Positions 3,439 to 53,184 of a DNA stretch of 53,184 nucleotides are shown piece after piece. Positions within the stretch are counted from its first letter, which is position 1, and every line of letters starts with the position of its first letter. Under the pieces are notes generated by a model, which searched no databases, had not been told where the DNA came from, and saw nothing but the letters and a program-made list of their open reading frames with translations. The position numbers were made by a program, and so were the translations under genes. The stretch spans positions 1 to 53,184 of IMG/VR virus record IMGVR_UViG_3300043570_000610; one strand, 5' to 3'. Source of the stretch: a virus. Taxonomy: Duplodnaviria; Caudoviricetes.

Positions 3439-3439
3439 T

Positions 3440-4165: not shown

Positions 4166-4799
4166 AATCTACACCCGTAATATCTTCAACCATTGATTTC
4201 CAGAGGTCCTCATGAGGAACGACATAACCGAGAGTGAGGCGCTTGCTGCGGCTACCAGCACAGTGATAGAAGACCTTATCGGCCTCGCTACGCCTACCGA
4301 AGTAGCCGACCTTGACCGACCATCCCTTGGGGTCCCAAAGAGTGACCATTTCTTTTGTTATTGGATCTAGATATCTAAAGTAGCCGCCATTCTCTTCTGT
4401 ATTATAAGAAAGAAGAATGTTGTGGCCGCTTGCATTCCAGTTTGTGTGCCAGCCCATAAATCCATTTTCTGGATAATAAACATGAACCGCATTGTTCTTA
4501 GCGCCAAGAAACGAAATTAATTCACGATTGAGTTTCTGTTGCTTTTCGCGGTGAGTGGTAGGAACAGTATCTACCATTCCGATATCACAACAGAAAGCAG
4601 TTTCTGGATAGCCTTCATGCTCTCCATCTTTGCTGACAATTTCATTCATATACTTTTCAGAAGTGCCGGTGTCGATATCAAATTGTCGGCGTCTATCCGG
4701 CTCTCTCAATTTGTCATGGTCGGTTTGTGAGAAGAACCAATCCGTATATGGTGTAAGGATTTCCAGAAGTTCTGGATTTATGTTACTGGAAACTTTCAT
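4152..4799 (-). CDS. 2OG-Fe(II) oxygenase-like protein
   Basis: YYPENGFMGWHTN (HxN in place of HxD), distal FYHC and conserved R in SKRLTLG; double-stranded beta-helix pattern. Confidence 0.55.
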   Translation of the reverse strand: MKVSSNINPELLEILTPYTDWFFSQTDHDKLREPDRRRQFDIDTGTSEKYMNEIVSKDGEHEGYPETAFCCDIGMVDTVPTTHREKQQKLNRELISFLGAKNNAVHVYYPENGFMGWHTNWNASGHNILLSYNTEENGGYFRYLDPITKEMVTLWDPKGWSVKVGYFGRRSEADKVFYHCAGSRSKRLTLGYVVPHEDLWKSMVEDITGVDFTEL

Positions 4800-5497
4800 T
4801 ATTTGTCTCTAACCCACGGTGGTAATGTATAGTGATAGATGACAATCTCTTGTCCCTGTAATTCTTCTTCTTTGTATCCAATTACAAAATTCCATCTTGC
4901 ATCAGGATCTGGAAACCTGCCCGTTCTAACACCAGTATTTCCATATGTCAATAGGCGCCACATTGTAAATGTGTCCCACTGCATTGCATCTGCTGGATAA
5001 TGTTGCCGGTCGTAGCCGGGTTCATTCTGACTACAATATTCTCCCCACCAAGAACTCATTAGTTTCAGTGTCTGTATATTATTACGGTATACAAAAAGAC
5101 CACAATGCTCGGTCATTTCTTCAGTCTCAGATAACTTTGTAAGAGCCGCGTTATATGGCCGATTTGCAGTAAACAAAACGTCTACATCATCTGGAATCTG
5201 ATTAAAGATTTTTTGAATGTCTTCGTGCCGAACTTCTGTATCACAGTCCATATAAACTGTCAAGTCATAAGGTGTTTTATCTAAAGCCCACAGCTTGGCT
5301 CTCTTATGATATGGAACATCATCTGTAATGACATTTTCAAAGATGTCATAGTCTTCTGGTTCCACCCATTCTGCATGAGTGAATAAAGTAATCTTTGCTT
5401 CTGGCCAATAGTCTAGAAGAGACAACGCCGAATTCTTAGCAGCGCGGTAGTAGCCTCTGCGTAAAGATGCTACGTAAACAAAACCATTATTTTCCAT
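4799..5497 (-). CDS. Glycosyltransferase-like protein (GT-A, DxD)
   Basis: GFVYVAS, TPYDLTVYMDCDT (DxD), HCGLFVY, WDTFTMW and IYHY. Confidence 0.65.
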   Translation of the reverse strand: MENNGFVYVASLRRGYYRAAKNSALSLLDYWPEAKITLFTHAEWVEPEDYDIFENVITDDVPYHKRAKLWALDKTPYDLTVYMDCDTEVRHEDIQKIFNQIPDDVDVLFTANRPYNAALTKLSETEEMTEHCGLFVYRNNIQTLKLMSSWWGEYCSQNEPGYDRQHYPADAMQWDTFTMWRLLTYGNTGVRTGRFPDPDARWNFVIGYKEEELQGQEIVIYHYTLPPWVRDK

Positions 5498-5960
5498 CGC
5501 TCAATGCTTCTTCTGACTGAATCAACATAACGGTATAAGCCATAACTTCAAGCGCAGACTTTGATCTGCGTATCTTGGTCTTTAATGGCTTGTTGGTAGA
5601 ATTCTTGATAGTAGCAATTTCAAATGCTTCTAGTTTAGCCTCAAAAAGAGCCTCATCTTTGCGGCGTTGTTGATCTACCTTAGAGCGTTCCATGCGCTGG
5701 CGAACTTCTTCGGAGCGGCGCTCTTCTCTGCGACGAGTGTTCTCATCAATCTGTTCTTCGGTGAACTTTTCCATAATAGCAATGTAATCTGGATTATTGC
5801 CCTCACCCGACACGGATGCGGGCAATCTCTTACCATCTGGATAGATGATAATAACCATTACTTGCTTTAGTTCTTTATTTAACCAAAAGGGTTCGTCGTA
5901 GTCTTTAGTTTCTACTACTTCACCCGACGGTATAATTACCGTATCTTCATCCACAATCAT
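5487..5960 (-). CDS. Hypothetical protein (possible fibre assembly chaperone)
   Basis: 157-aa ORF with SD GGAG, directly downstream of the repeat fibre gene; charged helical C-terminus. Confidence 0.5.
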   Translation of the reverse strand: MIVDEDTVIIPSGEVVETKDYDEPFWLNKELKQVMVIIIYPDGKRLPASVSGEGNNPDYIAIMEKFTEEQIDENTRRREERRSEEVRQRMERSKVDQQRRKDEALFEAKLEAFEIATIKNSTNKPLKTKIRRSKSALEVMAYTVMLIQSEEALSDGK

Positions 5961-11000: not shown

Positions 11001-14000
11001 GTGTTGCGGTATCGGTCCAGTTATCGACTGGTGGGTCAAGTTCCATATCACCGATATATGTGAACAGAAGTTCACCGGTGCAATTACGGAACTTAGATGC
11101 TTGCAACTGGCTTATCATCGTATATTCTACATACGGCAGTGTCAGTAGATCACCAGTTTTTGTAATGTTAGTGGAGTTTGTTGAATCGTATTGTAGATCC
11201 ACATTTTCCATAAAGAAAAATGGACGCATTTCTTTTGCGGTAGGATCGATAGCAATATGGTATTCATTACTTAAAACATTACCAACATTATGACCAGTGA
11301 AAGCATCCACAAGAATACCATTCTTGAAGCGGTCTAAGCCATTGGTATCTGTAATGCTTAAATCACTGGCAGATTTTTCCAGTAGATTTAGAGATGTATA
11401 ATATTCAAGTCGATTTAGTCGCTGTTCTAATTGGCCGATATCCCGCATTGTATAGCGACGATTATCAATCGATTTATACTTAACGCCATAGTCGGTTCTA
11501 CTCACCGACTTAGCAACGCTGGGTGCCAGCGAAGGATATGGAGGAATATCCACAATCGCAATAGACAGAGAATTCTCTGGTTCTATCGGTTCAACGGGAG
11601 ATAAGGAAGAGACACCATATACAGAGGAGAATACACCCTCGTCGTCCATAACAATTCTATCTTTACGTCCTAGATAATACTCAATGTCTGTAGTAAATTG
11701 TTCTGTCGGGAAAGGCGTAATAATTGCAAGACCAGTAGGACCACTTGGTGAAGAACCTACTGCAGGATTAACTGTCGCTGAGCCAGGACTTGTAGTGAAT
11801 GTAATAGTATCATCCCAGCGAGGACGAAAATCTAGTGTGTCGCGAAGATCATATGTGACCCCGGAGGTTGTAGAGGTATAAATTGGAATTTGTTCTGTGC
11901 GAATTTTACCCGCAGGTGTCGTTTCGTCATCTACAGGATATGAATCAACAGTGTAGAAGTTGTATACAGTAGATGGAGAACCGCCATGAGTAAAGTAGTC
12001 AAATGTCACAACCAACTTTTTGTCTGTTAGCGTAAGACTTGTACCCGGCTTTTTTACAATTCTGGCGTTTGCGTAGAAGCCGTCTCGTTGACCAGTATCG
12101 AAGTTGAACAGCGAAGTTACATCTGTTCCGTCTGCCTGAATATCTGCCGCGGTCTCATCGAAATCACCAATCTTTACCGTGCGAAGTTTGTAACCATCAG
12201 ACGCACCCAAATTATATGTGCCTGTAGTGTTGCCACTATCTTCGGTATCCAGAACAACTACTGCGCTTTCTTTAAGTTCCTTAGTTACTTTATTTGCGTT
12301 AGCAACTTGTACCTTACAGTGAACGCGAATGTTTGTGGCCGCGCTGATTGCTCCAGGGAAAGTTACTGTAATCTGTGTTCCGGTATTAGTTACAGTTACA
12401 CTAGCAGTAGATTGTAGATTTAATACTGAACCTATTTCATATGCCACACTATTAATAGTGCAAGCGGCTTTTGTGGTAACAATAATATTATCAAGAATTT
12501 CTGTGTTAGTCAGTGTTCCAACTGTAAACGGAAAACTCTCGGGTGAACTTACCGAGAATGTAATAGTGTTGCTGCTATCAATAGTGTCATCAAACTGTTT
12601 GTTGTAGACAAAACTATTGTCAACCGAAACAGGATTTGTAGTCTTTAATGCTCTAGCAGGAAACTTGAAAAGAAGGCTGTTGAACTTACTCTCGTATAGG
12701 TATGCTTTACTATCTACCAGAACAACGTTTGCATGGCCGTCGGCGGTTGTATCGTAGTAAACGCCCGCAACATCTTCAAAGTTATATGAAGATGTCATTT
12801 GAATGTCGTAGAGATACATACGGAATTGCGTATTATATGCGCCAGGTGTACCAGTCTCGTGAACGATATGACGAACTCTAGCTGTGCCGATTTGTGATCC
12901 TGGTGCCGCCGTGGCAGATTGTGTGCCACCCGTTGGAGAGCCGGATGTGCCAATCGCATTCGCGGCGGTGTCACGAAGAGACACTGTATCCCCGGCTGCA
13001 ATATCCCAGTTACCGCAGAAGTTGTCAACTAGAATATAGCTACCAAATGCAGTAGAGATAGGAACTTCATTTACAACCTTAGTTGTATTTCCTTTTGGAA
13101 CAACTATATATTCTGTTTGTCTGGTTTCGTATGCATAACCGCGAACATATGCTTTACCGGCTTCGATACCAATTGCTAAAAGCGTCTCATCACCGCCCGC
13201 TGCGGGGGTGGTCGCATTGTATGGTATTAGACCATTATTAGTTCCTGTGTCAAGGTGTTCTTTGATTAAAATAGGAAACGCTTTTACAGTATAGTTGCCC
13301 GATTCATCGAAAGTGCGTTTTGCAAGATTGCGACCAAGGTCTGCATAAATGCGGTCTTCGCTCACAACATTTTGTAACTTACCACCAACAATTGATATAT
13401 ACTCTGAGAAACCGTCGTCTGGCGTGGCATCTAGCGCATATTTTGCAAGAGATGCTGTTGTTACATATCTATCGGCACCAGGCGCTGCATAGTTAAATGT
13501 ACCCTGTGCAGGATCCAAAAGATCGGGGTCAGTTTCATGTGTAACAATACTTTCTACAATCTCGAACCCAACTCTAAAGTAAGGGTATGAATTATATTTT
13601 AGTAGTTCGAGAGTAGTTTTAGTAAAAGGAAGAAACTTACCATCTAGAAAAATAATACCATCATCTAGAGTTACGAATGACCCTCTACCATAATAATAAT
13701 TACCTTCTTCGAAAGTATCATCAACTACAAAAGTATCAGTAACTTGATCGCCGGTTTCAGATTCTATTACACGAATTGTTTCACCTGGAGAAAAGTGAAC
13801 TGCGTCCGTCGATCCATCGCCCGTAAGATATCTCAAATAAAGTGTGTTAAGATCAGGTGAGTCAGCTTCCGAGCCGCCGCTGGCATAAATAATTTCTGCT
13901 TGTATCGAAGATGTTAAGCCAATTACTTTAGCCCCAACATAATCTTCAATATTTTCAATCAAAAATCCAGAAGCATCTTCGTCAAGGACTTTAATGAAGT

Positions 14001-41579: not shown

Positions 41580-42335
41580 TTATGCGTATCTCTCCTCATA
41601 TTCTAGTCTGGCTAGAATATATTCCTTAACCAATTTGGACCTTACTATATCATGAACAGTAAACTCTAGTGTTTTGAACGAAGGCATTAGTTCTGCGATA
41701 GCGATAAACTTTTGAAGTCCCGACATATCGTTCTTTTTATATAAATCAGTTTGACGGAAATCTCCGCAAAAGATGATCTTTGAGTTTCTGCCAATTCGGG
41801 TCATAATCGAATTGAGTTCCATATCCGTCATATTCTGACATTCATCAACAATGACGATGGAATTATCTAGAGTGATACCACGAACAAACGAGGTGATCAT
41901 AAAGTTCACCGACTTTTGTTCTTGCAATCGCTGAAATGGCTGGATATGATTAAACAAATCCTCGCAGATTTCTACATAAGGTAACTGATAAACTTCTGTC
42001 TTTTCTTTTTCATCACCCGGTAGGTGACCAATTTCTCTTGATGGAACAGCAGAGCGGACTATTACTACTCGCTCAAATACTGTTTCTGGATCTAGTGCTT
42101 CTTCTAGTGCCTTAAAAAGCGCGATGTAGGTTTTCCCTGTTCCTGCTACACCGTGTAATAAAATTGCTGGGGACTGTTGGTCGTAAAGTTCAAAAAATCG
42201 TCTCTGATTAAAGTTTTTTGGTTGAATATTTTTTAGGTCTTCGTATTTTACTTTGCATAGCTTACTCTTCTCTAAGGTTACAGGAGCATCGTTATTTGAG
42301 ACAACTTGTAATGGGATTTGTTTTTTTCTTGCCAT
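41580..42335 (-). CDS. phoH: PhoH-family ATPase
   Basis: GVAGTGKT, IGHLPGD..EK, FVRGITL, IVDECQN, GDFRQTDL and DIVRS.LVKEYI. Confidence 0.92.
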   Translation of the reverse strand: MARKKQIPLQVVSNNDAPVTLEKSKLCKVKYEDLKNIQPKNFNQRRFFELYDQQSPAILLHGVAGTGKTYIALFKALEEALDPETVFERVVIVRSAVPSREIGHLPGDEKEKTEVYQLPYVEICEDLFNHIQPFQRLQEQKSVNFMITSFVRGITLDNSIVIVDECQNMTDMELNSIMTRIGRNSKIIFCGDFRQTDLYKKNDMSGLQKFIAIAELMPSFKTLEFTVHDIVRSKLVKEYILARLEYEERYA

Positions 42336-42365
42336 GACAGTCCTTTAGGGGGTTTGAGTTGATAC

Positions 42366-42397
42366 AAAAAAGGCGACCCTGCTATTGCAGAGTCGCC
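42366..42397 (-). terminator. Rho-independent terminator upstream of phoH
   Basis: GGCGACTCTGC-AATA-GCAGGGTCGCC followed by TTTTTT. Confidence 0.8.
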
Positions 42398-42459
42398 GAG
42401 TGCCAAGGGAGGCACGATAGCTGGAGGAGGTGAGATCGGTATAACTGTCTTCATGTAGT

Positions 42460-42467
42460 TATTTATT
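42460..42467 (-). promoter_or_regulatory. Late promoter variant AATAAATA
   Basis: Overlaps the upstream stop codon; 5 nt before ATG 42454. Confidence 0.45.
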
Positions 42468-43011
42468 GTGTTGCGTCTTTCCACCAGCTAGGAATATCAC
42501 GATTTTTCCATTTTGCCATAGTTTTTTTCGCACCGATATAATAGTTACGATATGACTGTAAGGAGTCGCCCGATACTTTATATTCATCTGGCATAGCAGG
42601 TGTCGGTTGTGTTAAATGACTTACAGGAATATTTCTGGGCGGCTTGCGAAGAAAATAAACTAGTCGGTCAGTGGCATGAATTCTGCCATAGCGATGAGTG
42701 TATTCTGTAAGCAGGGATTGGAATAGACACATAAGCCAAGTATAATTATTGTTAGACTGGCGAACCCAGACAGCACTCGGATGATTGATATGTGTGGCTT
42801 TGTAGAGAACGGTTTCTAGCGTATTGTCTTCCATTCGCCATCTCTTGATTGAACGGCCATTAGCAGTCTTGTCCAGATATTGTTCACCGTCAATTACACG
42901 GTGAGCGGTAGATAACAGTTGTGCATATTCTATAATCATCTTGACAACATGCTTGTCATTATGATATTCAGCGCACTTGGAAACGTCACGGTCCAAATAA
43001 AAGATATTCAT
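42463..43011 (-). CDS. Pyrimidine-dimer DNA glycosylase/DenV-related protein
   Basis: MNIFYLD, DKHVVKMIIEYAQLLSTAH, LYKATHINHPS..W and EYTHRYG..H. Confidence 0.65.
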   Translation of the reverse strand: MNIFYLDRDVSKCAEYHNDKHVVKMIIEYAQLLSTAHRVIDGEQYLDKTANGRSIKRWRMEDNTLETVLYKATHINHPSAVWVRQSNNNYTWLMCLFQSLLTEYTHRYGRIHATDRLVYFLRKPPRNIPVSHLTQPTPAMPDEYKVSGDSLQSYRNYYIGAKKTMAKWKNRDIPSWWKDATQ

Positions 43012-43017
43012 GATATA

Positions 43018-43290
43018 TTAACTTTCTTCAATAGATTCACGTATGCAGCGTATATGCTCTTTTGCTACACTTGATATTATATCAGATTCCCTCGCAATGT
43101 CAAGACATTCTATAACTTCAATTGGGTCCATTTCTAATAAATCGTCCATCATGTTTCTTTCTGGTGTAACTCCGAAAGCATTTACGCAAAATAAAACAAT
43201 CTCAATATCGGCATCCGTATACAACGGTATGCGATAGCGTCTAGGTTCCTTACGAAACTTGTCTGGAAACTTTAGAATATTATTAGTCAT
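43018..43290 (-). CDS. Hypothetical protein
   Basis: 90-aa ORF starting NILKFP; AATAAATA lies 5 nt upstream. Confidence 0.6.
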   Translation of the reverse strand: MTNNILKFPDKFRKEPRRYRIPLYTDADIEIVLFCVNAFGVTPERNMMDDLLEMDPIEVIECLDIARESDIISSVAKEHIRCIRESIEES

Positions 43291-43301
43291 GTTAATATTT
43301 A

Positions 43302-44735
43302 TTATGAAAAGACTTTCACGCCATATTTCGCTTCAAAATCATCAGCATCTTTAAAGTTATTCACCATCGGCATACCCTTGATATTGAGACTTGTATTCAA
43401 TAGCATTGGACAACCAGTTTCTTCATACCACCTACTAAGAAGGGCATATAGTCCCGGGTGTTGCTCTTTTGTCACAGTTTGGACGCGAGATGTCCCATCA
43501 GCATGAACAATAGCAGGAAACTGATCAGGATATTTACATCTTGAAGTATATTGCATATAAGGGGAGTCTTCCCATGACATTTCAAAGTAGTCTCGCGCAC
43601 GTCCTGCCAGAATGACTGGAGCAAATGGGCGAAATTTTTGACGCTTTTTAATAGCATTTACTTTATCCTTAATGTCATGACCTCTTGGATCAGCTAGAAG
43701 GCTGCGATTACCTAATGCTCTAGGGCCGAATTCTGCTTGACCATTTGCAACACCTACTATACCAGTCTTATGCAATTCTGTCAAGAGTTTTTCTACCGGA
43801 TATTCTCCTCCCATATCTGCGCCGAGATATGGACCCTTCCATTTCAATTTTTGTCTGTTGTTAGCTGCAATCGCACCCAAGGAACTTCCTGCATCACCCG
43901 GATTTGGCATAATCCAAACGTTCTTGAAGTATTTTCTAGCAAGATGATTTGCAGAACAGTTTAACGCACAGCCACCCATAAGAACAAGATTATCTTGTGC
44001 GGCATCTTTCATTTTTGCTCGTATCAGAAGTTTTTCGAATTCTTCTTCATAGACTTTTTGAGTTGCCGCAGCGACACTATAAATGTCCAGGTCTCCGTCA
44101 TCTGGCCGCCACCAGCGACATCCACGATGCAGGTTCTCAGATTTCCAAAGATTTTTTACTTCATCATAATACTTTCCAGGATCACCATATGCTACCATTC
44201 CCATTAAGATATATTCGTCTTCATTGGGCTTTAACCCAATTCTATCTGTCATAGCAGAATAGAACAGACCCAAAGACTTAGGATAGTCCATAGACCATTT
44301 CTTTTTGAGTTTACTACCAGAGCATTTCCAGATTGACGCAGTATCGAATTCACCGATAGCATCAATAACAAGAGCGGTTGCATTATCATACGGCGAAGTA
44401 TAGAAGCCAGCCGCGGCATGTGATTCATGATGAAATGCAAATTCTACCGGAATATCTTTTAGTCCGAAAGCAGCAAGATATTGTCTAACGCTAAATCTAA
44501 CCATGCCCTGACCCGCAAGCAATCGTCTCATAGCTCTAAGTTTAGGTTTTTCATACCAGTGAATTTTTTCTGGTTTACCAAACATCAATGCCGCGCGAAT
44601 TAAATCTACATTCAAGTCTTTGTCATTTTTGATACCCGAATACCGTTCAGCATGAGAAGCAAATAAAATTTCACTTCCATCAACTACTGTCAAAGATGCA
44701 TCATGTGCTGCTGCGGATATACCCCATTCAATCAT
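43302..44735 (-). CDS. Carbamoyltransferase, NodU/CmcH family
   Basis: HDAS, ERYS..K, HHESHAA, DAIGE, GGCALN, GDAG, EFGPRALGNRS, FRPFAP, H.DGTSRVQTV and LLNTSLN. Confidence 0.92.
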   Translation of the reverse strand: MIEWGISAAAHDASLTVVDGSEILFASHAERYSGIKNDKDLNVDLIRAALMFGKPEKIHWYEKPKLRAMRRLLAGQGMVRFSVRQYLAAFGLKDIPVEFAFHHESHAAAGFYTSPYDNATALVIDAIGEFDTASIWKCSGSKLKKKWSMDYPKSLGLFYSAMTDRIGLKPNEDEYILMGMVAYGDPGKYYDEVKNLWKSENLHRGCRWWRPDDGDLDIYSVAAATQKVYEEEFEKLLIRAKMKDAAQDNLVLMGGCALNCSANHLARKYFKNVWIMPNPGDAGSSLGAIAANNRQKLKWKGPYLGADMGGEYPVEKLLTELHKTGIVGVANGQAEFGPRALGNRSLLADPRGHDIKDKVNAIKKRQKFRPFAPVILAGRARDYFEMSWEDSPYMQYTSRCKYPDQFPAIVHADGTSRVQTVTKEQHPGLYALLSRWYEETGCPMLLNTSLNIKGMPMVNNFKDADDFEAKYGVKVFS

Positions 44736-44832
44736 AGATGAACGGATCCATTTTACGTAATTCTTTAATTCGTTTTAGATGCTTTCTTCTAGCAAAATAT
44801 GAATTAATTTTTTTTATCAGCCATTTTAACAT
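44728..44832 (-). CDS. Small 34-aa peptide ending DPFIYD
   Basis: Not in the ORF track. MLKWLIKKINSYFARRKHLKRIKELRKMDPFIYD; SD GGAG; overlaps the carbamoyltransferase start. Confidence 0.65.
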   Translation of the reverse strand: MLKWLIKKINSYFARRKHLKRIKELRKMDPFIYD

Positions 44833-44876
44833 AAAGTAACTCCGTAAAGTATAAGTGTGTAGCAATAGAAATTATC

Positions 44877-46232
44877 TCAATTCAATGTCTCGCAGTTTGC
44901 TCCAAAACCTATGACCCGAGTTTTTTCTGGTAACAATTTAATAAAACTTTTATACCTAGCTTGTGTTTCTTTTAGACCATAGTATCCATTGCTGAAATCA
45001 GTGCAAAATATATTAGAGATGTTAATTAATCCATTTTCAGATAGATGTGAACAAAGAGTTTCGGGAGAATTGAATAAATCACATTGAACAAAAACAACAT
45101 TACTTTTTCTAAATTCTTCAATCAATTTATTAAAGTTTTCTTCTCCGCCGAAATACGAAACAGTTCGCTGATAACTCTCCAGAAAATCTTTAGTGAATTC
45201 TCCTGATTCCGTAAAAACCTGTCCACCGAGACATTTAAATGTTTTTTTATGTGGATACTCCTGCATTAATTGCAATGGATTTTTATTACTGTGCATTAGA
45301 GTTTCAATCCACTGAATACTTTTTGGATTGAAGTCATATATCACAATTTTACCATCCTGCTTCAGTTTACCCCGATGTAAAATTTCTAAAAACTTGAACC
45401 CAGCGGCGGGAAACGCAGCGAAAGAATATTGCTTATTATTAAAATCAATTTTTATTTCTTCACTATTAAGAACCCAAATTTGATCAGAAAAGTTTCGAAG
45501 AGTATTAATAAAACGAATTTGATTGGGATTGGTAACTCCACAATTTCGTAATTCTTTTAGTGATTGTAATAGTTCATTGCCGTTATTCTCTGGGTAATAA
45601 TATGTCCGCTTGGATCGTATCGTGTCATTCCAATTACCGATTTCACAATTACCACGACTAGAAGCATTAAAGTAATTCCATCCCTGCTTGGTATGCTTCT
45701 GCGGTTTATATTCACCAGTATAGCGAATCCACAACGGTGTATAATCGTCATGGAAATTTTCTTCGCTTCTTTCTACAACCGGCAGTTCTTCAATTTTCTG
45801 TTCCCATGCACCATAACTTGGTTTACCACATTTAATCCAGTTGCGGCTATTAACTAACACAAACTGATGATGTAGCTCGTACCAATCTTCTTTCCATTCT
45901 AAGATGTGCCCGAACGCCATGTAGTTGGGACTGGAAAGTATTTCTTCTCTGATCTCAAAGAGGATAGACATGTCATAGATGCGAACACCCGCTGCCATAA
46001 ACAAGATATTCTTGTAAGTTCCGTGATACTTTGACATACCATCATCGATACTATCACATTCTAAAATTGATAATGTATTTTCGCGCCGCGCCAGTTGGTT
46101 AAACCTGAGCGCATAAAACTTAGTATACTCAACCATTCTTTTTGCAAGTTCTTTATTTTTAATCGTCTCAGTCGGAAAAATGCAAATTGCTAAATCTACA
46201 TCGTTGACAAAATTACCTTGCACGATATTCAT
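44877..46232 (-). CDS. Hypothetical protein, two-domain (possible transferase)
   Basis: 451 aa; YELHHQF and NFHDDYTPLW, then a Rossmann-like PAAG..IYDFN..CDLF..NISNIF segment. Confidence 0.5.
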   Translation of the reverse strand: MNIVQGNFVNDVDLAICIFPTETIKNKELAKRMVEYTKFYALRFNQLARRENTLSILECDSIDDGMSKYHGTYKNILFMAAGVRIYDMSILFEIREEILSSPNYMAFGHILEWKEDWYELHHQFVLVNSRNWIKCGKPSYGAWEQKIEELPVVERSEENFHDDYTPLWIRYTGEYKPQKHTKQGWNYFNASSRGNCEIGNWNDTIRSKRTYYYPENNGNELLQSLKELRNCGVTNPNQIRFINTLRNFSDQIWVLNSEEIKIDFNNKQYSFAAFPAAGFKFLEILHRGKLKQDGKIVIYDFNPKSIQWIETLMHSNKNPLQLMQEYPHKKTFKCLGGQVFTESGEFTKDFLESYQRTVSYFGGEENFNKLIEEFRKSNVVFVQCDLFNSPETLCSHLSENGLINISNIFCTDFSNGYYGLKETQARYKSFIKLLPEKTRVIGFGANCETLN

Positions 46233-46906
46233 AGTATTTCTCGTAAAAGTTCAGCGGGATTTGTAGTAAGTTTACCATGAATAATAATATGGTAACGATA
46301 TTCGTCGCTATCGTTGATAACAGCGTGTTTCTTACCAATGTCAAGTAAAAAACCAGAACCTTGCTTAAACGGAACAACGCCATGTCCTTCTATCACAAAC
46401 TCACAACCTTCTGGGTTATTAATCGCAAAATTAAAAGGTCCGAAGATTCTTCCGATACCATCTGTATGTGGCATAATATATCCCTGAGGACTCATTCTCA
46501 TGATACGAATTCTACCGTAATCTTTAAATGGTAGCGAATCAATTAGGTTTTTTGTCAATGGTAATTTCTCACAGACAGAAGTCCATTTATAGTTTGCTTC
46601 TTCTTCGCTGCTAAATCCATACCGATCATAATTTTCAGTTTTGTCGTAATCGATACCGTGCACCGTTAGCGAGTACCAACCCTCGTGACCATAACTTTCA
46701 ATTTTATCTTTTGCTCTGTGTTCTACAAAAAGTTCGCTAACAGCAGATAACTCTGCTATAATTTCATTGTAGTTATGAGTTCCTGTTGCGTTTACTTGCG
46801 ACCAGGGCCAATCTGTTTCCCACAGATTATTCGGAAACGTATTGGGATAATTCCATTGCTTCTTTTTGTTTTCTGTAAGAAAGTTGATCAGTTCTGTGTT
46901 AGACAC
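46229..46906 (-). CDS. Aspartyl/asparaginyl beta-hydroxylase-like 2OG-Fe(II) oxygenase
   Basis: RIRIMRM.P.GYI.PHTD and HAVIN.S...RYHIIIH; GTG 46906 is the likely start. Confidence 0.75.
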   Translation of the reverse strand: MSNTELINFLTENKKKQWNYPNTFPNNLWETDWPWSQVNATGTHNYNEIIAELSAVSELFVEHRAKDKIESYGHEGWYSLTVHGIDYDKTENYDRYGFSSEEEANYKWTSVCEKLPLTKNLIDSLPFKDYGRIRIMRMSPQGYIMPHTDGIGRIFGPFNFAINNPEGCEFVIEGHGVVPFKQGSGFLLDIGKKHAVINDSDEYRYHIIIHGKLTTNPAELLREIL

Positions 46907-46908
46907 AA

Positions 46909-47865
46909 TTATATCTTTTCTTTGCTTATCATAAAATCTGTTCCACAAAAGCAAAGTTTCTGGTTACAAATAACTCCCTTGGTTGGAAGTTGGTAATCCG
47001 CATGGTCGTTGATATGAAACATATATCCGCCCTGAAGACAATTCGCAACCTGGACATGTCCAGACCAAGAGACAAACAAACTTTCCAATCCTGCTGCACA
47101 ATACCATCCAGCAAACTTATTATCACCTTCAGTAATATATTTATTTGACTGTCCATTATATTCTACCGAACCATCGTCGAAATAAAAGTCAGACATCATG
47201 GACGAGTATTTGAAGTTTGGATTTACAATCGACGGATCATAATTCATTTCTTTTCTTGGAATTGACATTAGAATACTTTCCTGCTCGGGCGTATAGGTTT
47301 CTCCAACGTTTGTTGCTCTCGCTTGTTCAGGAAGAACTCTTACTGCTTCTACTGCAATCTCAGGAATTTCACAACAACGTTGATACATTTCATATGCTTT
47401 GTCCCAATATCTAGAATCCATCATGATTCTAACAGTTACTAAAGTTTGCTTTGATGCAACCTTTACCTTCTCTAAAAATTCTGGGTCTTCATAACTTGGA
47501 TGATAACTAAAGCATATATAACTAAATTTTTGGGCAATTTTTTCCCAATATTTTATAGGTTTTACACCATTTGTAGTTAAACCAATAGTATTATTCTTAC
47601 TCGTATAGAAAATGTCTACCAATTCTTTAAAGAACGGACTCAGTGTCGGTTCACCGCCGCTGATAGTGCAATGTATCTTTGGGTAGTGGTCAATGAGTCG
47701 ATAGATAAATTCTTTTGCACGCTCCCATTCATAGTGGTGATTCTTACCAGAATTCAATATTGGTGGACAATACGCGCAACGATTATTACAAATATTATTA
47801 ATAATCCACGTAAGCAACATTACATTTTCTGTTTGCTGTATTTTTATTAATTTCTTATCCATCAT
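46909..47865 (-). CDS. Radical SAM enzyme
   Basis: CNNRCAYC, SGGEPT, TTNG and C-terminal Cys cluster (C.AG...C...C....C.C). Confidence 0.9.
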   Translation of the reverse strand: MMDKKLIKIQQTENVMLLTWIINNICNNRCAYCPPILNSGKNHHYEWERAKEFIYRLIDHYPKIHCTISGGEPTLSPFFKELVDIFYTSKNNTIGLTTNGVKPIKYWEKIAQKFSYICFSYHPSYEDPEFLEKVKVASKQTLVTVRIMMDSRYWDKAYEMYQRCCEIPEIAVEAVRVLPEQARATNVGETYTPEQESILMSIPRKEMNYDPSIVNPNFKYSSMMSDFYFDDGSVEYNGQSNKYITEGDNKFAGWYCAAGLESLFVSWSGHVQVANCLQGGYMFHINDHADYQLPTKGVICNQKLCFCGTDFMISKEKI

Positions 47866-48809
47866 AAAAATTCAATTTCTTTTAGTTCTACGAAAGTGCT
47901 AAACACATGTTCATCCCAATGTCGCTTTACGCTTCCTGCTTTTACACTGTAATCCGCAATTGTTCCGCCGTAGCGAGATATAAAATATTCATCGATTATA
48001 ATTTTTCCAAGTTTAAATCTACCATAAGTCAGTTTATTCAGATCGTCAATGGGAACTTTCTTTTGTAGATTCTCTGGTAACTCAGAATACATCTTTTCCA
48101 GTTGTCTTATTTCCCAACCATCACTATCTGGACCAAAATTAATCCAAGTTTCTGCTGCGAATCTTTCCTGGGGTCTTACTTGTTCACGTTCGATTACTTC
48201 TAAGTCTTTGTCGGCGACAACCTTCATCCAATCTTTACCAAGGGTGTTATAACCAAGATAAACTTCTCCCCACTGTAGCGTTGGTGTTAACCATAGTTTA
48301 TCGCGCTCGAGGATAGGAAGATGCAATCCTTGTGGATAATAATCATAAAGAAGTGCCATATTCGGAAAGTCGCCCTTCTTGATGTATAGCAAATCTTCAT
48401 GAAGGTGGATAAGTTCGTTCAGTTCCAAAAAGTCTTCGTGCAACTCTTGCGACCACCAATTGGCCGTTTGCATCAAATCCTCAAATCTATCGCCATACCG
48501 CTCAAACTCTTCATGCAAATAATTGAGTTCAGGTGTAGTAAGTTCTTCGATTTCTTCATACAATGGTAGCGGTTCATCGTAAACAGAATTAATTCTGTTG
48601 AGACAATCAGTCAGTCTAGTTCTAACTTTAGAAATCTGACTATAGGAGAGATTAGTGAATCGAGTATTAATGTAAGAATCAGGAGTTTGTTGGTTTTTCT
48701 TTGTAATCTCGACCCATCGATTAACAAGATCCGTGGGATACAATGCAAAATGCAATTCGTGTTCTTTACCACAATCATCTAGGAAAACCAGTCTCAAGAG
48801 TGTTGCCAT
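47862..48809 (-). CDS. Hypothetical protein in the radical SAM cluster
   Basis: 315-aa ORF; LNYLHEEFE, LNELIH..E and YLGYNTLGK. Confidence 0.6.
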   Translation of the reverse strand: MATLLRLVFLDDCGKEHELHFALYPTDLVNRWVEITKKNQQTPDSYINTRFTNLSYSQISKVRTRLTDCLNRINSVYDEPLPLYEEIEELTTPELNYLHEEFERYGDRFEDLMQTANWWSQELHEDFLELNELIHLHEDLLYIKKGDFPNMALLYDYYPQGLHLPILERDKLWLTPTLQWGEVYLGYNTLGKDWMKVVADKDLEVIEREQVRPQERFAAETWINFGPDSDGWEIRQLEKMYSELPENLQKKVPIDDLNKLTYGRFKLGKIIIDEYFISRYGGTIADYSVKAGSVKRHWDEHVFSTFVELKEIEFL

Positions 48810-48810
48810 A

Positions 48811-50073
48811 TTAAATACCTTTCAATAATTTGTAGTAATCACCATATACTTCTGAAAATTTAATCGGACGCATCAGTTCTAGTGTATCGATGTAATTCAT
48901 CAAATCGGGGAACTTGTCGGAATCATCTCTACTGGTCATATATTCAAACTGATATTTAATTCTATTAATCCATCGCGGATGATTAACCAGATCAGGATAT
49001 TCTTCCCACCTCTTGTTAATAATCTCTTTAACGTTCCGCGGTAAAACTGTTGTGCTAAGATATTGGGGCCAATGAGTAGTACCTACGGAAAATAGTCCCT
49101 CGTTGCGTTTGCAGATTTTTTTCCATTTACGATCTATAATTGCTTGTGCAAAATCAGGTAGATTGTAGATGTTCATTGCGTGAACAGTAGCAAGAATATT
49201 AACAACGATATTATCTGCCGTTTCGTCTAACCGATCAAGATTCTTTGAGATTACTTCCCATGATGCTGGCCAACGAACAAACTCGTTTCTAGATCCCCAA
49301 TCATCAAGACTTACCATCAATTCAACTAATTTGAATTGACTCCAGAGATCAATAAACTTTTCGCTTAGTTGAGTTCCGTTTGTATGATAGCGCAGTTCAA
49401 TATTCTTACTATGACCGCTTTCTACAAGTTTTGTGATGAAACGTTCATGCCCCTTGATTAGTAGAGGTTCTCCCCCACCAAAAATAATGTGGCGAATATC
49501 ACCCATAAACTCATCTAGTGCGTCTTGGGTTTCTAGTTTCTCAAACCAGTCAAAACAATCGGTATTAGCAATACTTTTTGATTTAAAATCCCAATCACTT
49601 TTTGCACCAGGACTAGTCAGGGTTTGTGCAAGTTTCTTACTATCATTCAACCACTTACTGCTATCACGAGGACGACACATAACACATTGAAGATTGCATG
49701 TATTACCAATGCGCAAATCCAAAGTAATTGGGTTAAAGTCTACGCTACCATCTGGATTTGTAAGAGAGATTATGCGATTAATTTTTTCTGCGCCCAACTT
49801 GCGCTTCCACATATCATTCTCGATTACACGGTGACTCTTGATTCCACTTGCTTCTTCTTTCCAACAAGCATTGCATTGAGGAGGTTGTTCTCCGTTGATA
49901 AACTTCAGTCTTGCCCGTTTAAACTGCTCACTGTTCCAAATTTCTTGGGGAGTTGAGTCATTGAAGTTTAAATTTGCCTCAGGTGAAGCAACACAGCAAA
50001 GTGGAACCTTGCCGTCATTCCAACTTGCAAGATGTATCCATGGCTGGATACAGAAATTTTTATTATCAATCAT
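48811..50073 (-). CDS. Radical SAM enzyme with N-terminal twitch/SPASM-like Cys domain
   Basis: FCIQPW...LCC...C..CW..E, GNTCNLQCVMC, GGGEPL and YHTNGT. Confidence 0.9.
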   Translation of the reverse strand: MIDNKNFCIQPWIHLASWNDGKVPLCCVASPEANLNFNDSTPQEIWNSEQFKRARLKFINGEQPPQCNACWKEEASGIKSHRVIENDMWKRKLGAEKINRIISLTNPDGSVDFNPITLDLRIGNTCNLQCVMCRPRDSSKWLNDSKKLAQTLTSPGAKSDWDFKSKSIANTDCFDWFEKLETQDALDEFMGDIRHIIFGGGEPLLIKGHERFITKLVESGHSKNIELRYHTNGTQLSEKFIDLWSQFKLVELMVSLDDWGSRNEFVRWPASWEVISKNLDRLDETADNIVVNILATVHAMNIYNLPDFAQAIIDRKWKKICKRNEGLFSVGTTHWPQYLSTTVLPRNVKEIINKRWEEYPDLVNHPRWINRIKYQFEYMTSRDDSDKFPDLMNYIDTLELMRPIKFSEVYGDYYKLLKGI

Positions 50074-51355
50074 ATAATTTTGCCAAACGTGTATCTAAAA
50101 CTGATATACTTTCTTTGCGCTCTTCATCAAGTGCGTTAGTATATATACGAAATCTATTTACCATAATTTCCCAATCTTTAAGACGAGAATTCTTAAAAAA
50201 CCCTACGATGCCTTGAAGAGAATTTTTAGTCATTTCATTCTGAATGGTATTTACTTCACAATAATCTTCAATGAGTTCCACAGCTTCTTTGCGTAAATCG
50301 TCGGGTAAGATTAATGCGCTTAGATGCACCGGGTGATGGTTGATTAGAAAATCAATAAAAATATCCTTAGAATATTTCTCACGTAAATCGTCTACCCAAG
50401 TAAGGATATTTACAACATCAAATGCATTGTATACTTGAATTGTTGGCGTGATACCAAGATGAACATTTGACATTTGTGCAAATTTTTCAATATTCTTAGA
50501 AACTTGCGACCATTTACTTGGCGCTCTAATATACTCGGTCACTGCCCCAATACCATCAATGCTGGCATTAATATTAACGGCATCAAATTGTGAGATTAGT
50601 TCAAAGAACTTTGGATTAATATTTGTGCAATTAGTATTAAAGAATAGAGTTATATCTCTGCGACCCTGACGAATGCACTCTTCCATAAACTTATAGTTAT
50701 TTTTAATTAGAGTGGGTTCGCCACCTGTCATGTAAACTTTTTTCAATGTTGGAATCAGCGAAATAACTTGATCCCAAAGAATATTGTGATCAAACCAAGG
50801 TTGGTCCTCCATAACTTTTTCTGGGAATTTACCAAAGGTCTTTTGCCACACATCAGCATAATCGGGTCGGCGAGTAACTAAATCAGTATGCTCTTTTACG
50901 ATCTGACTGCTATTCCAGGGGTTACACATTCTACACTTTAAATTACACAAATTACCTAAACGCAGGTCGAGATATACGGGAGCAGTTTCAACAAACCCAT
51001 CTGCTTCTCCTGCAGATTCAATAATCTGCTTCAGTTCTTCTGTGCCAAGACGTTGTGACCATTCCCGCAAACTATGCTGGCGATTACTCATCTTATTATC
51101 GTCTTCTTGCTGATAACAAACTGCACATCCAGGAATAGATTCAGCATTAATCATTTTTCTTCGAATATCTCGAATACTTTCTGAGTTCCAAGCATCTTCA
51201 ATAAAATTATCTCGACATGTATATGCCTCACCTGTATCTTTTGAAACAACATTTGCACGACCTTTGACCATACAACAATACCGCACAGTAGTGTCTGTGT
51301 TAATCATTGTGCTTACAAAAGGTATTGCGCACATACTTTTATTATTTTCGAACAT
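50066..51355 (-). CDS. Radical SAM enzyme with N-terminal twitch/SPASM-like Cys domain
   Basis: CAIPF...YCC...C..CY..E, GNLCNLKCRMC, TGGEPT and ASIDG; paralog of the previous ORF. Confidence 0.9.
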   Translation of the reverse strand: MFENNKSMCAIPFVSTMINTDTTVRYCCMVKGRANVVSKDTGEAYTCRDNFIEDAWNSESIRDIRRKMINAESIPGCAVCYQQEDDNKMSNRQHSLREWSQRLGTEELKQIIESAGEADGFVETAPVYLDLRLGNLCNLKCRMCNPWNSSQIVKEHTDLVTRRPDYADVWQKTFGKFPEKVMEDQPWFDHNILWDQVISLIPTLKKVYMTGGEPTLIKNNYKFMEECIRQGRRDITLFFNTNCTNINPKFFELISQFDAVNINASIDGIGAVTEYIRAPSKWSQVSKNIEKFAQMSNVHLGITPTIQVYNAFDVVNILTWVDDLREKYSKDIFIDFLINHHPVHLSALILPDDLRKEAVELIEDYCEVNTIQNEMTKNSLQGIVGFFKNSRLKDWEIMVNRFRIYTNALDEERKESISVLDTRLAKLYD

Positions 51356-51395
51356 GGTGGTTCCGATTAGTTGATAAATTGTTCAAAGTCTCTAT

Positions 51396-51980
51396 TCATT
51401 TATAACCCACTGCCATGTATCTATAAAAATGTCCACATTTCAACATTCCTGCATACTGTGGTTCTTTGATATTGTTGATTGTCAAAAAATGTGCTAGATC
51501 ATCAGCAAGACGAACATGCTCAGGATTAACTAGATTATTTCCTTGGACGATATATTTAGTACCACTAGGAATAGAGTTCCACCAAGCATCATAAACTTCT
51601 TGCGTCACATGCTCGGAACTGGTGTTGATAACTAGATCAGGGTGTGGATGATTGAGTGGCATACCATTTTGCATGTTGTGCTGACGAAATGTGATATCGT
51701 GATAATACTCATCGATAGCAGCAAACACCTTCTTACATTCAGAGTCCATGTCAGTAGTTAGTATTCGTGCATCAGGAAACTTGTGGGCAATAAACTGCGC
51801 AAGAACTCCATACCATCCACCAAAAATTACGATAGATCTATCAAGAGGAGTTACATGTTCCAGTAACCATTTCTTACTCTCTATCTGACTTGGCCAAAAG
51901 TTCTCAGAGAATCTGTATGCATTCTCTGGATTATTACGGATGTATTCCATCCAATTCATTACAACATCAAAATTAACCAC
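51396..51980 (-). CDS. SAM-dependent methyltransferase-like protein
   Basis: SQIESKKWL, IFGGWYG, DLVINTSSEH and RYMAVG; start estimated at GTG 51980. Confidence 0.6.
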   Translation of the reverse strand: MVNFDVVMNWMEYIRNNPENAYRFSENFWPSQIESKKWLLEHVTPLDRSIVIFGGWYGVLAQFIAHKFPDARILTTDMDSECKKVFAAIDEYYHDITFRQHNMQNGMPLNHPHPDLVINTSSEHVTQEVYDAWWNSIPSGTKYIVQGNNLVNPEHVRLADDLAHFLTINNIKEPQYAGMLKCGHFYRYMAVGYK

Positions 51981-52374
51981 GGCGCATTTTCGCAATCTCC
52001 AAAATTTGTTCGTCATTGATAACAGGTACAGCATTACTCTTATGTAGAACGCTGATACCCTTAATAAGTGTGCCCGTATAGACTTTTTCTTTACGAGTAT
52101 AGTTTACACCAATACCATCTCCAGAAGGATATTTTTGTCGATGGTCACTGACTTCATATTTAGGTAGAGGTGTGCCACGCAAGTTAGGTTTAAATCTACC
52201 TTGCCGATATTGCACATACTCGTCAAAGGTCTTAGTCGAAGAACCAAGGCGTTTCATCTGCTTATTGTAATCTACCCAATCTTGCGCATATCTACTAGTC
52301 ACGCCTTTGTTTGTAGTTTTGCGCTTTTTAGTATTTGTCGTAGTGTAAGCTGGACCCAACAAATGCATAGTCAT
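51973..52374 (-). CDS. Conserved T4-like hypothetical protein
   Basis: YTGTLIKGI..LHKSNAVPV motif; SD AAGGAG before ATG 52374. Confidence 0.65.
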   Translation of the reverse strand: MTMHLLGPAYTTTNTKKRKTTNKGVTSRYAQDWVDYNKQMKRLGSSTKTFDEYVQYRQGRFKPNLRGTPLPKYEVSDHRQKYPSGDGIGVNYTRKEKVYTGTLIKGISVLHKSNAVPVINDEQILEIAKMRRG

Positions 52375-52395
52375 AACAATCTCCTTATGACTTTC

Positions 52396-52466
52396 ACAAT
52401 ACAACATATTTGTTTTAATGTCAATAGAAAAAACCGCTTGACTTTTGGTAGCGAATCGTCTATAAC
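52396..52466. promoter_or_regulatory. Back-to-back sigma70-type promoters
   Basis: Minus strand: TTGACA(52424)-N17-TATTGT. Plus strand: TTGACT(52438)-N17-TATAAC. Confidence 0.7.
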
Positions 52467-52491
52467 TATAATGTAAACAATGAGGTGTGTG

Positions 52492-52683
52492 ATGATTCTT
52501 GAAATATCTAGAAATGAAGAAATCCTACTTAAAGAGTTGGGTGTTGCATGGAACGGCTGGCAGTATGAACATGCCGAGTTTCTCGAAATTAATTTTGAAC
52601 TCGAAGCGAATGGTATTCCTACATATTCGTCTTTTGAAGAGTATCTTGAAGGCCGTGTGGCATATAAAAGGAAGGTTGCATAA
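52492..52683 (+). CDS. Small hypothetical protein
   Basis: SD GAGGTG before ATG 52492, downstream of the plus-strand promoter. Confidence 0.6.
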   Translation: MILEISRNEEILLKELGVAWNGWQYEHAEFLEINFELEANGIPTYSSFEEYLEGRVAYKRKVA

Positions 52684-52820
52684 TGAACCCCGAAGAACTA
52701 GAGCAACACTTCCGTCAGATGGAGAAGGAACTATTCGAACAAGAAGTTACTTCGAAGTCGCCCGATACACGCCGTCCCAATCTTTCGGAGGTGATACCTG
52801 AAACTCTTCAATACGGCTAA
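52683..52820 (+). CDS. Possible 45-aa protein
   Basis: TAATG coupling to the previous gene (MNPEELEQHFRQMEKELFEQ...), but it overlaps the cyclase 3' end on the opposite strand. Confidence 0.35.
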   Translation: MNPEELEQHFRQMEKELFEQEVTSKSPDTRRPNLSEVIPETLQYG

Positions 52821-53184
52821 TCATCGAGTCGTAATAATCAGATAGATTACCTTGCCAGCACTTCTTTAAGTCGCTGGCAAATTTTTTGGCAACTTCCCAA
52901 TTACCTTCGCGATAAAATGTAAGGAACTTCTCATGTTGTTTCTCGCCTGGATGGTCAAAGGTTTCCAAAACTGTAAAAATCTTAGCTGGCAGGGTCTTAC
53001 CTTTAACTGCAATCAAATCAAGTTCAACTACTTGGTATACATCCCTAACCAGTTCGGCCGTTTGTGGTCCGACGATGAGTTTGACGCCATAAGACTTGGT
53101 TTGACCTTCCAGACGAGCAGCCAGATTAACGCCATCCCCCAAGCAAGTATAGTCAAAACGCTGAGTGCTGCCCATATTACCAAC
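52747..53184 (-). CDS. Class III adenylate/guanylate cyclase, C-terminal part (5' truncated)
   Basis: VGNMGSTQRFDYTCLGDGVNLAARLEG, VKGK and C-terminal WDGVY..TSK. Confidence 0.9.
   Translation of the reverse strand, partial: VGNMGSTQRFDYTCLGDGVNLAARLEGQTKSYGVKLIVGPQTAELVRDVYQVVELDLIAVKGKTLPAKIFTVLETFDHPGEKQHEKFLTFYREGNWEVAKKFASDLKKCWQGNLSDYYDSMISRIEEFQVSPPKDWDGVYRATSK

Follow-up and report, generated by a model that had tools for sequence, protein, structure and literature searches.

What does a block of about 9 kb of co-oriented genes in a lake-water phage make, and do all the genes in it belong to a single pathway? The block lies in a 53,184-nucleotide (nt) stretch of DNA (hereinafter, the window), which is the whole of the linear IMG/VR virus record IMGVR_UViG_3300043570_000610, rated ~33% complete. 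An initial annotation of this block listed a methyltransferase, two twitch-type radical SAM (S-adenosylmethionine) paralogs, a third radical SAM enzyme, an AspH-like oxygenase, two unknowns, a 34-amino-acid (aa) peptide and a carbamoyltransferase, and assigned them to one uncharacterised pathway that would make a hypermodified base, a modified sugar or a modified peptide. Here we report that seven of these genes, MT212, rSAM_A, rSAM_B, unk315, rSAM_C, AspH and unk451 (44877-52034), make up a core module that is a real, coherent, widespread and uncharacterised gene system, and that the carbamoyltransferase (CT477) together with the peptide (pep34) is a unit apart from this module which belongs to the conserved phage backbone.

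Coherence of the core module across phages and bacteria

Altogether 56 distinct viral loci were fetched via unk315 and unk451 (two duplicates were dropped), and the module genes recur together in these loci. The unk451 family is represented in 46 of the 56, with an AspH gene adjacent or fused in 42 of those 46 and located one to three genes away in the remaining 4; radical SAM genes with an N-terminal twitch domain (N-twitch) are present in 44 loci, in two or more copies in 32, whereas rSAM_C-like genes were found in 38, MT212 homologues in 32 (either before or after the core) and unk315 in 30. Because contig ends cut many of the loci, all these counts are minimum values. Gene order (rSAM_A-rSAM_B-unk315-(rSAM_C)-AspH-unk451) is retained at 35-60% identity, and the module is syntenic in dozens of uncultured phage contigs and in a few genomes of predatory bacteria.

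Natural fusions tie the same genes together. AspH and unk451 are joined in one 703-aa protein, with the PF05118 domain detected in 12 among the 120 unk451 homologues listed; 8 of 9 longer unk451 homologues carry a B12-binding radical SAM domain; and of 10 long unk315 matches scanned, which bear generic names or none, 2 contain AspH and 5 contain radical SAM (2 of these 5 radical SAM matches exceed the Pfam cut-off). Given the co-occurrence, the synteny and the fusions, the stretch from MT212 to unk451 is a linked set rather than a group of independently assorting genes. The single pathway proposed in the initial annotation thus holds for the seven core genes and, in its original form, fails for CT477 and pep34, which follow the backbone: a carbamoyltransferase is found near the AspH/unk451 core in 8 of the 56 viral loci and, conversely, AspH, unk451 and unk315 genes in only one of 80 carbamoyltransferase loci, the contig denoted L004. 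A carbamoyltransferase does accompany N-twitch radical SAM genes generally.

The block has no DNA-level match among GenBank phages. In 20 metagenome runs from lake water it recurs almost unchanged, sharing 96-99% of sampled words; 17 of these runs are a possible source of the record, and the remaining three were used to check the assembly. Contigs of the three non-source runs cover 30 of 30 bins of the region 42300-53184, and single contigs bridge the junction between backbone and module (42300-47717 with no differences and 42300-48018 with two). Because independent contigs bridge this junction, the block is not an assembly chimera and the gene order across it is real. Among the runs with the block none was listed as RNA, and the single RNA run compared with it yielded nothing. 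The window encodes T4-type baseplate, tail and replication proteins, including gp32, gp59 and PhoH, and its gp6-like baseplate protein shows ~35% identity to that of Pelagibacter phage HTVC008M and ~34% to those of cyanomyophages; the lineage is that of a T4-like phage, ~170 kb in size and common in lake water.

The description of the block as tightly packed and co-oriented is accurate. Ten open reading frames (ORFs), all on the minus strand, occupy 43302-52407 (Table 1); neighbours either overlap by 4-62 nt or are separated by no more than 141 nt. Pfam and NCBIfam searches also recovered the listed families, namely the two twitch radical SAM paralogs, the third radical SAM enzyme, the AspH-like oxygenase and the carbamoyltransferase, and the two unknowns indeed match no Pfam, NCBIfam or PHROGs family. 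Missing from the initial gene list is g144, a separate backbone gene that comes first after the promoter-like site.

Table 1. Features of the gene block and its borders, in window coordinates
Feature	Description	Position	Strand	Match or mark
g90 and g182, then hairpin	Two genes (g182 with a weak Pyr_excise match) followed by a terminator-like hairpin	42372..43290	-	Hairpin 42397-42372, strong
CT477	NodU/CmcH/TobZ-type O-carbamoyltransferase; backbone gene bounding the island	43302..44735	-	phrog_1601, 4e-97
pep34	Basic 34-aa peptide ending RKMDPFIYD	44728..44832	-	Stop overlaps CT477 start (ATGATTGA)
unk451	N-terminal GT-A-like domain (motif RSEENFHDDYTP) and C-terminal class I methyltransferase-like domain	44877..46232	-	Model pLDDT 90.5
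AspH	AspH-type 2-oxoglutarate/Fe(II) oxygenase	46229..46954	-	PF05118 Asp_Arg_Hydrox, 45.5 bits (cut-off 22.6)
rSAM_C	Short radical SAM protein with Cys-rich C-terminal region	46909..47865	-	Radical_SAM, 47.3 bits
unk315	Unannotated family; His/Glu motifs LNYLHEEFE, NExIHxxE, LGYNTLGKD	47862..48809	-	No family match (Pfam, NCBIfam, PHROGs)
rSAM_B	Paralog of rSAM_A	48811..50073	-	NF033640, 357.6 bits (cut-off 170)
rSAM_A	N-terminal-twitch radical SAM	50066..51355	-	NF033640 N_Twi_rSAM, 351.7 bits (cut-off 170)
MT212	Small methyltransferase-like protein; first gene of the portable module	51396..52034	-	Methyltransf_25, 17.6 bits
g144	Backbone gene of unknown function bounding the island	51973..52407	-	phrog_27048, 8.2e-17
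Promoter match	Sigma-70-like, TTGACA-17-TATTGT	52396..52424	-	10/12 positions; AAGGAGA and in-frame g144 ATGs downstream

The carbamoyltransferase and a conserved micro-peptide

CT477 contains both domains of its family, the Kae1-like Carbam_trans_N (127.2 bits) and the YrdC-like Carbam_trans_C (177.3 bits), and is thus a genuine family member, although its score against the NodU equivalog model is well below the cut-off (135.9 vs 1000 bits). Its matches in PDB are NovN, GdmN and TobZ (1e-35 to 3e-49), solved relatives which carbamoylate sugar or polyketide hydroxyls.

Of the 80 carbamoyltransferase loci fetched, 73 were evaluable for pep34, and in 44 of these an ORF of ~34 codons ends in RKxDPFIY[D/K] with its stop within the carbamoyltransferase start (ATGATTGA or ATGA). 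The 34-aa peptide of the initial annotation is therefore a conserved gene. Including the window, 24 distinct DNA versions were found, reaching down to 51% carbamoyltransferase identity, and the synonymous third-position changes in the invariant motif across these versions indicate that pep34 is under selection at the protein level. The pair was also found in a marine single-virus record (Marine virus AG-345-D19). The peptide carries a net charge of +8 and no Cys, and it could serve as a substrate, a tether or an accessory subunit. The pair of pep34 and carbamoyltransferase also occurs without matches to the two window radical SAM paralogs within up to 6 kb on each side (loci L132-L144); there, on a different backbone, the pair stands alone between genes that by eye resemble a primase and a DnaB-type helicase.

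In L004, a third N-twitch gene (11409-12797, 462 aa) lies between unk451 and the carbamoyltransferase, pep34 is missing, and the C-terminal tail of the N-twitch protein contains KAIKEMRKID, a peptide-like run of residues that may derive from a peptide gene absorbed into it. The converse idea, that pep34 is a deletion scar of the tail of this third gene, was based on a blastn match of 85% over 33 nt (E 4.7e-5) and a blastp-short match (E 0.037); it was refuted by the conservation of the peptide gene in 44 of 73 loci.

A hypervariable island between g144 and the carbamoyltransferase

The module occupies an island of ~7-12 kb (in the coordinates of the relatives) that is bounded by g144 and the carbamoyltransferase. 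In about 20 contigs, the segment CT-g90-g182-PhoH is 91-99% identical to the window (CT477 itself 91-95%) and the island content differs; g144 flanks the island at its other end in all five relatives searched (61-73% identity). In the other islands, the stretch of up to 6 kb upstream of the carbamoyltransferase contains three to five N-twitch genes in tandem plus a protein that is SGNH-like by eye, and in three larger relatives all N-twitch genes above the family cut-off (4, 6 and 6) fall within the island. The AspH/GT-A module was found at this island only in the window phage and in one other contig. Compared to L004, the module genes are 79-95% identical and the backbone genes 63-81%; this higher identity of the module implies that it has moved between backbones. 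Since phages that are otherwise near-identical, and are met repeatedly in many lake metagenomes, exchange this island, its product likely matters for the interplay of phage and host or of phage and phage.

Elsewhere the neighborhoods of the module are different. In other phages, it abuts two GT8 (glycosyltransferase family 8) glycogenin-like genes (8e-7), or GT7-like and lectin-domain genes and a UDP-glucose/GDP-mannose dehydrogenase, and in some relatives it comes after genes for a glycine-rich protein and for a fibre-like protein that carries a Peptidase_G2 domain. In a metagenome-assembled genome of Halobacteriovoraceae (L062, 207-kb contig), a chromosomal copy of the module has GT2, YdjC-like, B12-radical SAM, carbamoyltransferase and amidotransferase genes as neighbours; the trio of GT2, YdjC-like and B12-radical SAM genes may correspond to the hopanoid HpnI/HpnK/HpnJ genes. 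Homologues of unk451 were detected in 6 of 101 genomes sampled from the order of this bacterium.

Four module-bearing records (L039, L042, L047 and L060) are 109-176 kb long and rated 30-53% complete, and their lengths at this completeness imply jumbo phages of ~330-360 kb. None of the extra genes of the relatives (c3, c4, c8, c9 and others) has a match in the window at E <= 1e-3, save one weak radical SAM match, and cluster c3, GT-like by eye, has no sequence match in PDB. The neighbours n8 (SGNH-like), n30 (primase-like), n31 (DnaB-like), c20, c22 and c23 were likewise named by eye.

Protein families of the module

The paralogs rSAM_A and rSAM_B, which share 28% identity, are both members of the NF033640 family, as confirmed on DNA, with matches that span model positions 1-396 of 398. 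In rSAM_A the SPASM match (residues 9-81) precedes the Radical_SAM domain (133-317). The fetched loci yielded 74 non-identical N-twitch sequences; the CxxxCxxC motif (C126/C130/C133) is present in all of them, and the N-terminal cysteines C8, C27, C67 and C70 are retained in 73 or 74. All 13 rSAM_C sequences compared retain the cysteines C26/C30/C33 and C256/C276/C300/C305/C307. No sequence match of rSAM_B was found in PDB, and literature searches on twitch radical SAM enzymes returned no paper on NF033640 and no described reaction.

Among 50,697 GenBank phage records, N-twitch genes occur in 4, including the cultured Ralstonia phage RsoM2USA. This jumbo phage (MG752970.1; L064/L066) carries two of them (305 and 316 bits). 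The first adjoins a carbamoyltransferase (49% identity), a g182 homologue and three DUF6071-like genes, and the second lies between two c3-family genes (45-47% identity); all these genes are annotated as hypothetical.

The unk315 profile matches 1022 representatives at E <= 1e-3 in a library clustered at 50% identity. The structural model (predicted local distance difference test score, pLDDT, 86.6) matches only uncharacterised viral models: no PDB fold was found at E <= 0.001 (the best being 0.076), and a search of the ESM Atlas gave no usable match. Residues H99, E103, H135 and E138 are invariant in alignment A2 and lie on two helices, which suggests a metal site; unk315 is a candidate metalloprotein partner of rSAM_C. 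A predicted complex of rSAM_C and unk315 scored 0.00, which is no verdict and counts neither way. A relative proposed in Agrobacterium phage Atu_ph07 (BFVD fold match, E 1.4e-11, TM 0.51) was dropped because the gene could not be placed: profile A2 matches nothing in that genome, and a guessed 300-aa gene beside its radical SAM gene gave an hhalign probability of 0.3.

The oxygenase belongs to the PF05118 family. All 18 sequences compared keep H163, D165, H210, R220 and H222, of which H163-x-D165, H210 and R220 align with the ligands of human AspH (profile match 5.5e-5); a Cpz10-type beta-hydroxylase was also matched (1.7e-4).

For unk451, Foldseek searches point to two halves. The N-terminal half matches enzymes of the glycosyltransferase A (GT-A) fold, namely majastridin, COLGALT1, LH3, LARGE1 and beta4GalT7 (E 1.4e-4 to 4e-3, TM 0.2-0.45, 8-10% sequence identity), and the C-terminal half matches nicotinamide N-methyltransferase (NNMT; E ~1e-3). 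Given these E values of 1e-4 to 4e-3 and the low TM, the two assignments are fold-level leads and not family assignments. The family signature is the invariant RSEENFHDDYTP stretch, and H161-D162-D163, invariant or nearly so, is a candidate acidic, metal-binding (DxD-type) motif as judged from the alignment. The family comprises 236 clusters at E <= 1e-5, all named hypothetical, and the look-alike clusters are 92-100% viral. Neither unk451 nor unk315 had a tblastn match in the 50,697 GenBank phage records. As for MT212, which was initially called a methyltransferase, the Methyltransf_25 match exists but falls below the cut-off of 27 bits; the class I methyltransferase motifs of MT212 and of the C-terminal domain of unk451 were read by eye.

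Proposed function and alternatives

The reading that we favour, with a probability of about 0.5, is that the module is a soluble system for the attachment and tailoring of a sugar or glycan, coupled to hydroxylation. It is preferred because of the sugar-related neighbours of the module, the relatives of the carbamoyltransferase, the GT-A and methyltransferase folds of unk451 and the fusion of unk451 with AspH. Among the three substrates initially offered, a modified sugar is accordingly the best supported, a hypermodified base has no direct support and a modified peptide has lost ground.

The gene families and folds, the conservation of catalytic residues, the synteny and fusions, the variability of the island and the recurrence in independent samples are observations, to which a proposed scheme of four steps can be added. 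The AspH-type oxygenase would hydroxylate an acceptor, and the GT-A-like domain of unk451 would transfer a sugar or a sugar-nucleotide-derived group onto the new hydroxyl, with methylation possibly performed by the methyltransferase-like domain of unk451 and by MT212. The N-twitch pair and rSAM_C/unk315 would then make oxygen-independent radical edits of the sugar, such as epimerisation, dehydration, C-methylation or the formation of C-C bonds, and the backbone carbamoyltransferase might finally O-carbamoylate one of the product's hydroxyls. Candidate acceptors include virion proteins and glycans of the host envelope, among other molecules, and the order of the steps is likewise presumptive.

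Several observations weigh against this reading. The island of the window contains no gene for sugar-nucleotide synthesis or activation and no recognised glycosyltransferase, and the GT-A assignment of unk451 relies on weak Foldseek scores with no Pfam match. The glycosyltransferase neighbours in other phages may reflect a shared island location rather than a shared pathway. The islands of the relatives combine N-twitch genes and the SGNH-like protein with no glycosyltransferase, so that the radical SAM enzymes need no co-encoded transferase. Relatives of AspH act on proteins and nucleoside antibiotics, no characterised member of the NF033640, unk315 or unk451 families turned up, and the absence of a late-type promoter from the island does not speak for decoration of the virion.

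Among the alternatives, modification of a protein or peptide without a sugar survives best, and it is unlikely. In this case, the oxygenase, the radical SAM enzymes and the methyltransferases would act on a structural protein or on pep34, and the carbamoyltransferase on the DPFIY motif; the model is RiPP (ribosomally synthesized and post-translationally modified peptide) or cofactor maturation of the mycofactocin or PQQ (pyrroloquinoline quinone) type. That pep34 is real, selected as a protein, invariant in its C-terminal motif and translationally coupled to the carbamoyltransferase is offset by its distribution: it tracks the carbamoyltransferase and not the radical SAM genes (L132-L144), it is missing in 29 of the 73 evaluable loci, some of them rich in N-twitch genes, and it is missing in L004, the closest module-bearing contig. 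Moreover, it offers no Cys, and because the genes of the module overlap, there is no space in it for a further small ORF. The radical SAM proteins do show weak matches to peptide maturases, yet no match to an RRE (RiPP recognition element) or PqqD was found with Pfam or NCBIfam, so that the locus does not qualify as a RiPP maturation cluster. A structural protein as substrate is consistent with the activity of AspH-family enzymes, which hydroxylate proteins, and with the fibre-like Peptidase_G2 gene and the glycine-rich protein that precede the module in relatives. A passage of PMC2938197 proposes that oxygenases of the beta-hydroxylase family in phages and bacterial operons modify co-encoded collagen-like and tail-collar proteins.

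Next comes the synthesis of a small molecule or cofactor, that is, a nucleoside- or aminoglycoside-like compound or another metabolite acting on the host or on competitors, which we consider improbable. Antibiotic pathways provide relatives of the carbamoyltransferase (NovN, GdmN and TobZ) and of the oxygenase (Cpz10, caprazamycin), but this similarity is distant (E 1e-4 for the oxygenase). The solubility of all the proteins would suit such a pathway, as would the twitch radical SAM enzymes of known reaction (MoaA, BtrN and BlsE), which mostly act on small molecules. However, Pfam, NCBIfam and PHROGs searches found no nonribosomal peptide synthetase, polyketide synthase, cyclase, sugar-nucleotide synthase, transporter or self-resistance gene in the island, and a lytic phage has little time to gain from a secreted product.

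Hypermodification of nucleic acids ranks below these two and is doubtful. DNA or RNA bases would be hydroxylated, glycosylated, methylated and carbamoylated as a protection against host nucleases, with island swaps making the modification strain-specific. Hypervariability at a fixed locus fits such an arms race, the sigma-70-like promoter without a late promoter would permit early expression, the genes around the island belong to replication and repair (gp32, gp59, PhoH and the Pyr_excise-like gene), and the carbamoyltransferase domains are related to Kae1 and YrdC, enzymes of N6-threonylcarbamoyladenosine (t6A) synthesis. Against this, a gene of the thymidylate synthase family (the type that includes deoxynucleoside monophosphate hydroxymethylases) was found in none of three backbone relatives, one of them rated 100% complete, and in only one of four incomplete module-bearing records; the first of these negatives is indirect for the window phage because the window is only ~33% of its genome. 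Furthermore, Pfam, NCBIfam and PHROGs searches detected no gene of the DNA glycosylase fold and no TET/JBP or DpdA-type gene in the island, and the GT8 and GT7-like neighbours in other phages exceed what base glycosylation needs.

Finally, we give very little credence to a composite scheme, built by analogy, in which pep34 would be a carrier or precursor whose DPFIY motif is loaded or modified by the carbamoyltransferase, much as HypF acts on the C-terminus of HypE, and is finished by the swappable N-twitch arrays or by the oxygenase/GT-A module as a strain-specific, peptide-derived, glycosylated cofactor or effector; if true, this would be a phage counterpart of mycofactocin or PQQ biosynthesis with its chemistry rewritten by swaps of island cargo.

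Promoters, terminator and other regions of the window

The sigma-70-type promoter reported at 52424 exists, but as evidence it carries little weight: the region holds hardly more sigma-70-like sites than shuffled sequences do (45 vs 36.2 +/- 6.0), so the site on its own is weak evidence. The true start of g144 is probably one of the downstream ATGs. A small plus-strand ORF of 67 aa (52480-52683), which has the ribosome-binding-like site GAGGTG, points away from g144, which makes 52408-52479 a possible divergent promoter region. At the other end, the hairpin after g182 is the probable end of the transcription unit, and relatives keep the synteny CT-g90-g182-PhoH. Inside the g90 ORF, upstream of g182, there is a perfect sigma-70 consensus on the minus strand (43076-43103, TTGACA-16-TATAAT, 12/12, with a TG extension).

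The T4-type late motif TATAAATA was sought in 42000-53184 and not found. All six occurrences in the window are on the minus strand (7877, 14378, 16379, 21768, 32285 and 38292), each just upstream of a structural gene or gp32, and this placement resembles that of T4-type late promoters; the total is not above chance (6 vs 4.9). At the far end of the window, the region 67-5960, termed a GT island in the initial annotation, holds nine genes without Pfam matches, of which only that at 2100-2795 matches a glycosyltransferase PHROG (phrog_1962, 4.6e-9).

Significance and comparison with known systems

In the literature, we found no paper that defines the seven-gene module, its fusions, the unk315 and unk451 families or the peptide; supplementary files may list such cassettes. 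Radical SAM cassettes of aquatic T4-like phages are mentioned in passing in passages of PMC7029224 and PMC5332604, none of them there with a known product, the latter reporting a T4-like genome with 12 radical SAM genes. The present analysis adds a portable seven-gene unit tied together by fusions and two large unannotated families, that of unk315 and the almost wholly viral one of unk451, and shows that a carbamoyltransferase common in cyanophages and pelagiphages is paired with an overlooked, conserved micro-peptide. The presence of an oxygen-requiring oxygenase and of radical SAM enzymes in one operon is chemically unusual, radical SAM enzymes being oxygen-sensitive as a class. Small as it is (~7 kb) and free of any transmembrane-like segment in its proteins, the module is suited to heterologous reconstitution.

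With respect to location, the closest counterpart is the hypervariable host recognition cluster of pelagimyophages and cyanomyophages as it appears in passages of PMC7029224 (Zaragoza-Solas et al. 2020). That cluster, too, is a strain-variable region of aquatic T4-like phages, and module relatives in other phages adjoin fibre-like and GT8 genes, but the island of the window is not beside tail fibres and lies near PhoH and gp32. According to the same passages, the variable regions of pelagimyophages contain radical SAM cassettes, GT8, UDP-glucose dehydrogenase and an AspH-type core gene, and alteration of the host O-antigen is suggested as their role.

Among the enzymes, rSAM_A and rSAM_B resemble the other members of NF033640 in the N-terminal twitch/SPASM-like Cys domain and in the conserved cluster cysteines; the family is catalogued, and what is added here is that its genes form tandem arrays of paralogs inside a hypervariable phage island. 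Like MoaA, BtrN and BlsE, twitch radical SAM enzymes that act on sugars and nucleotides, they combine one auxiliary cluster domain with a radical SAM core, but the order of the domains is inverted, and the weak matches to the MoaA and BlsE models (4e-11 and 1.5e-5) are far under the cut-offs, which places them outside these families. The oxygenase differs from human AspH in that the carboxylate ligand is present. CT477 shares both Pfam domains with TobZ, NovN and GdmN but is ~100 residues shorter, and in 44 of 73 loci the start of the carbamoyltransferase gene is overlapped by the gene for a basic 34-aa peptide; we know of no counterpart of this peptide among characterised O-carbamoyltransferases.

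The proposed coupling of hydroxylation and sugar attachment can be compared with LH3 and COLGALT1, the collagen lysyl hydroxylase/glycosyltransferase enzymes, which rank with the best fold matches that unk451 has. The window revealed no collagen-like substrate, the oxygenase is of the AspH type and not a lysyl hydroxylase, and a methyltransferase-like domain is added. The shared feature is a 2-oxoglutarate oxygenase fused or adjacent to a domain of the GT-A fold, where the logic would be hydroxylation followed by glycosylation of one and the same acceptor, and a bifunctional enzyme of this kind is present in mimivirus.

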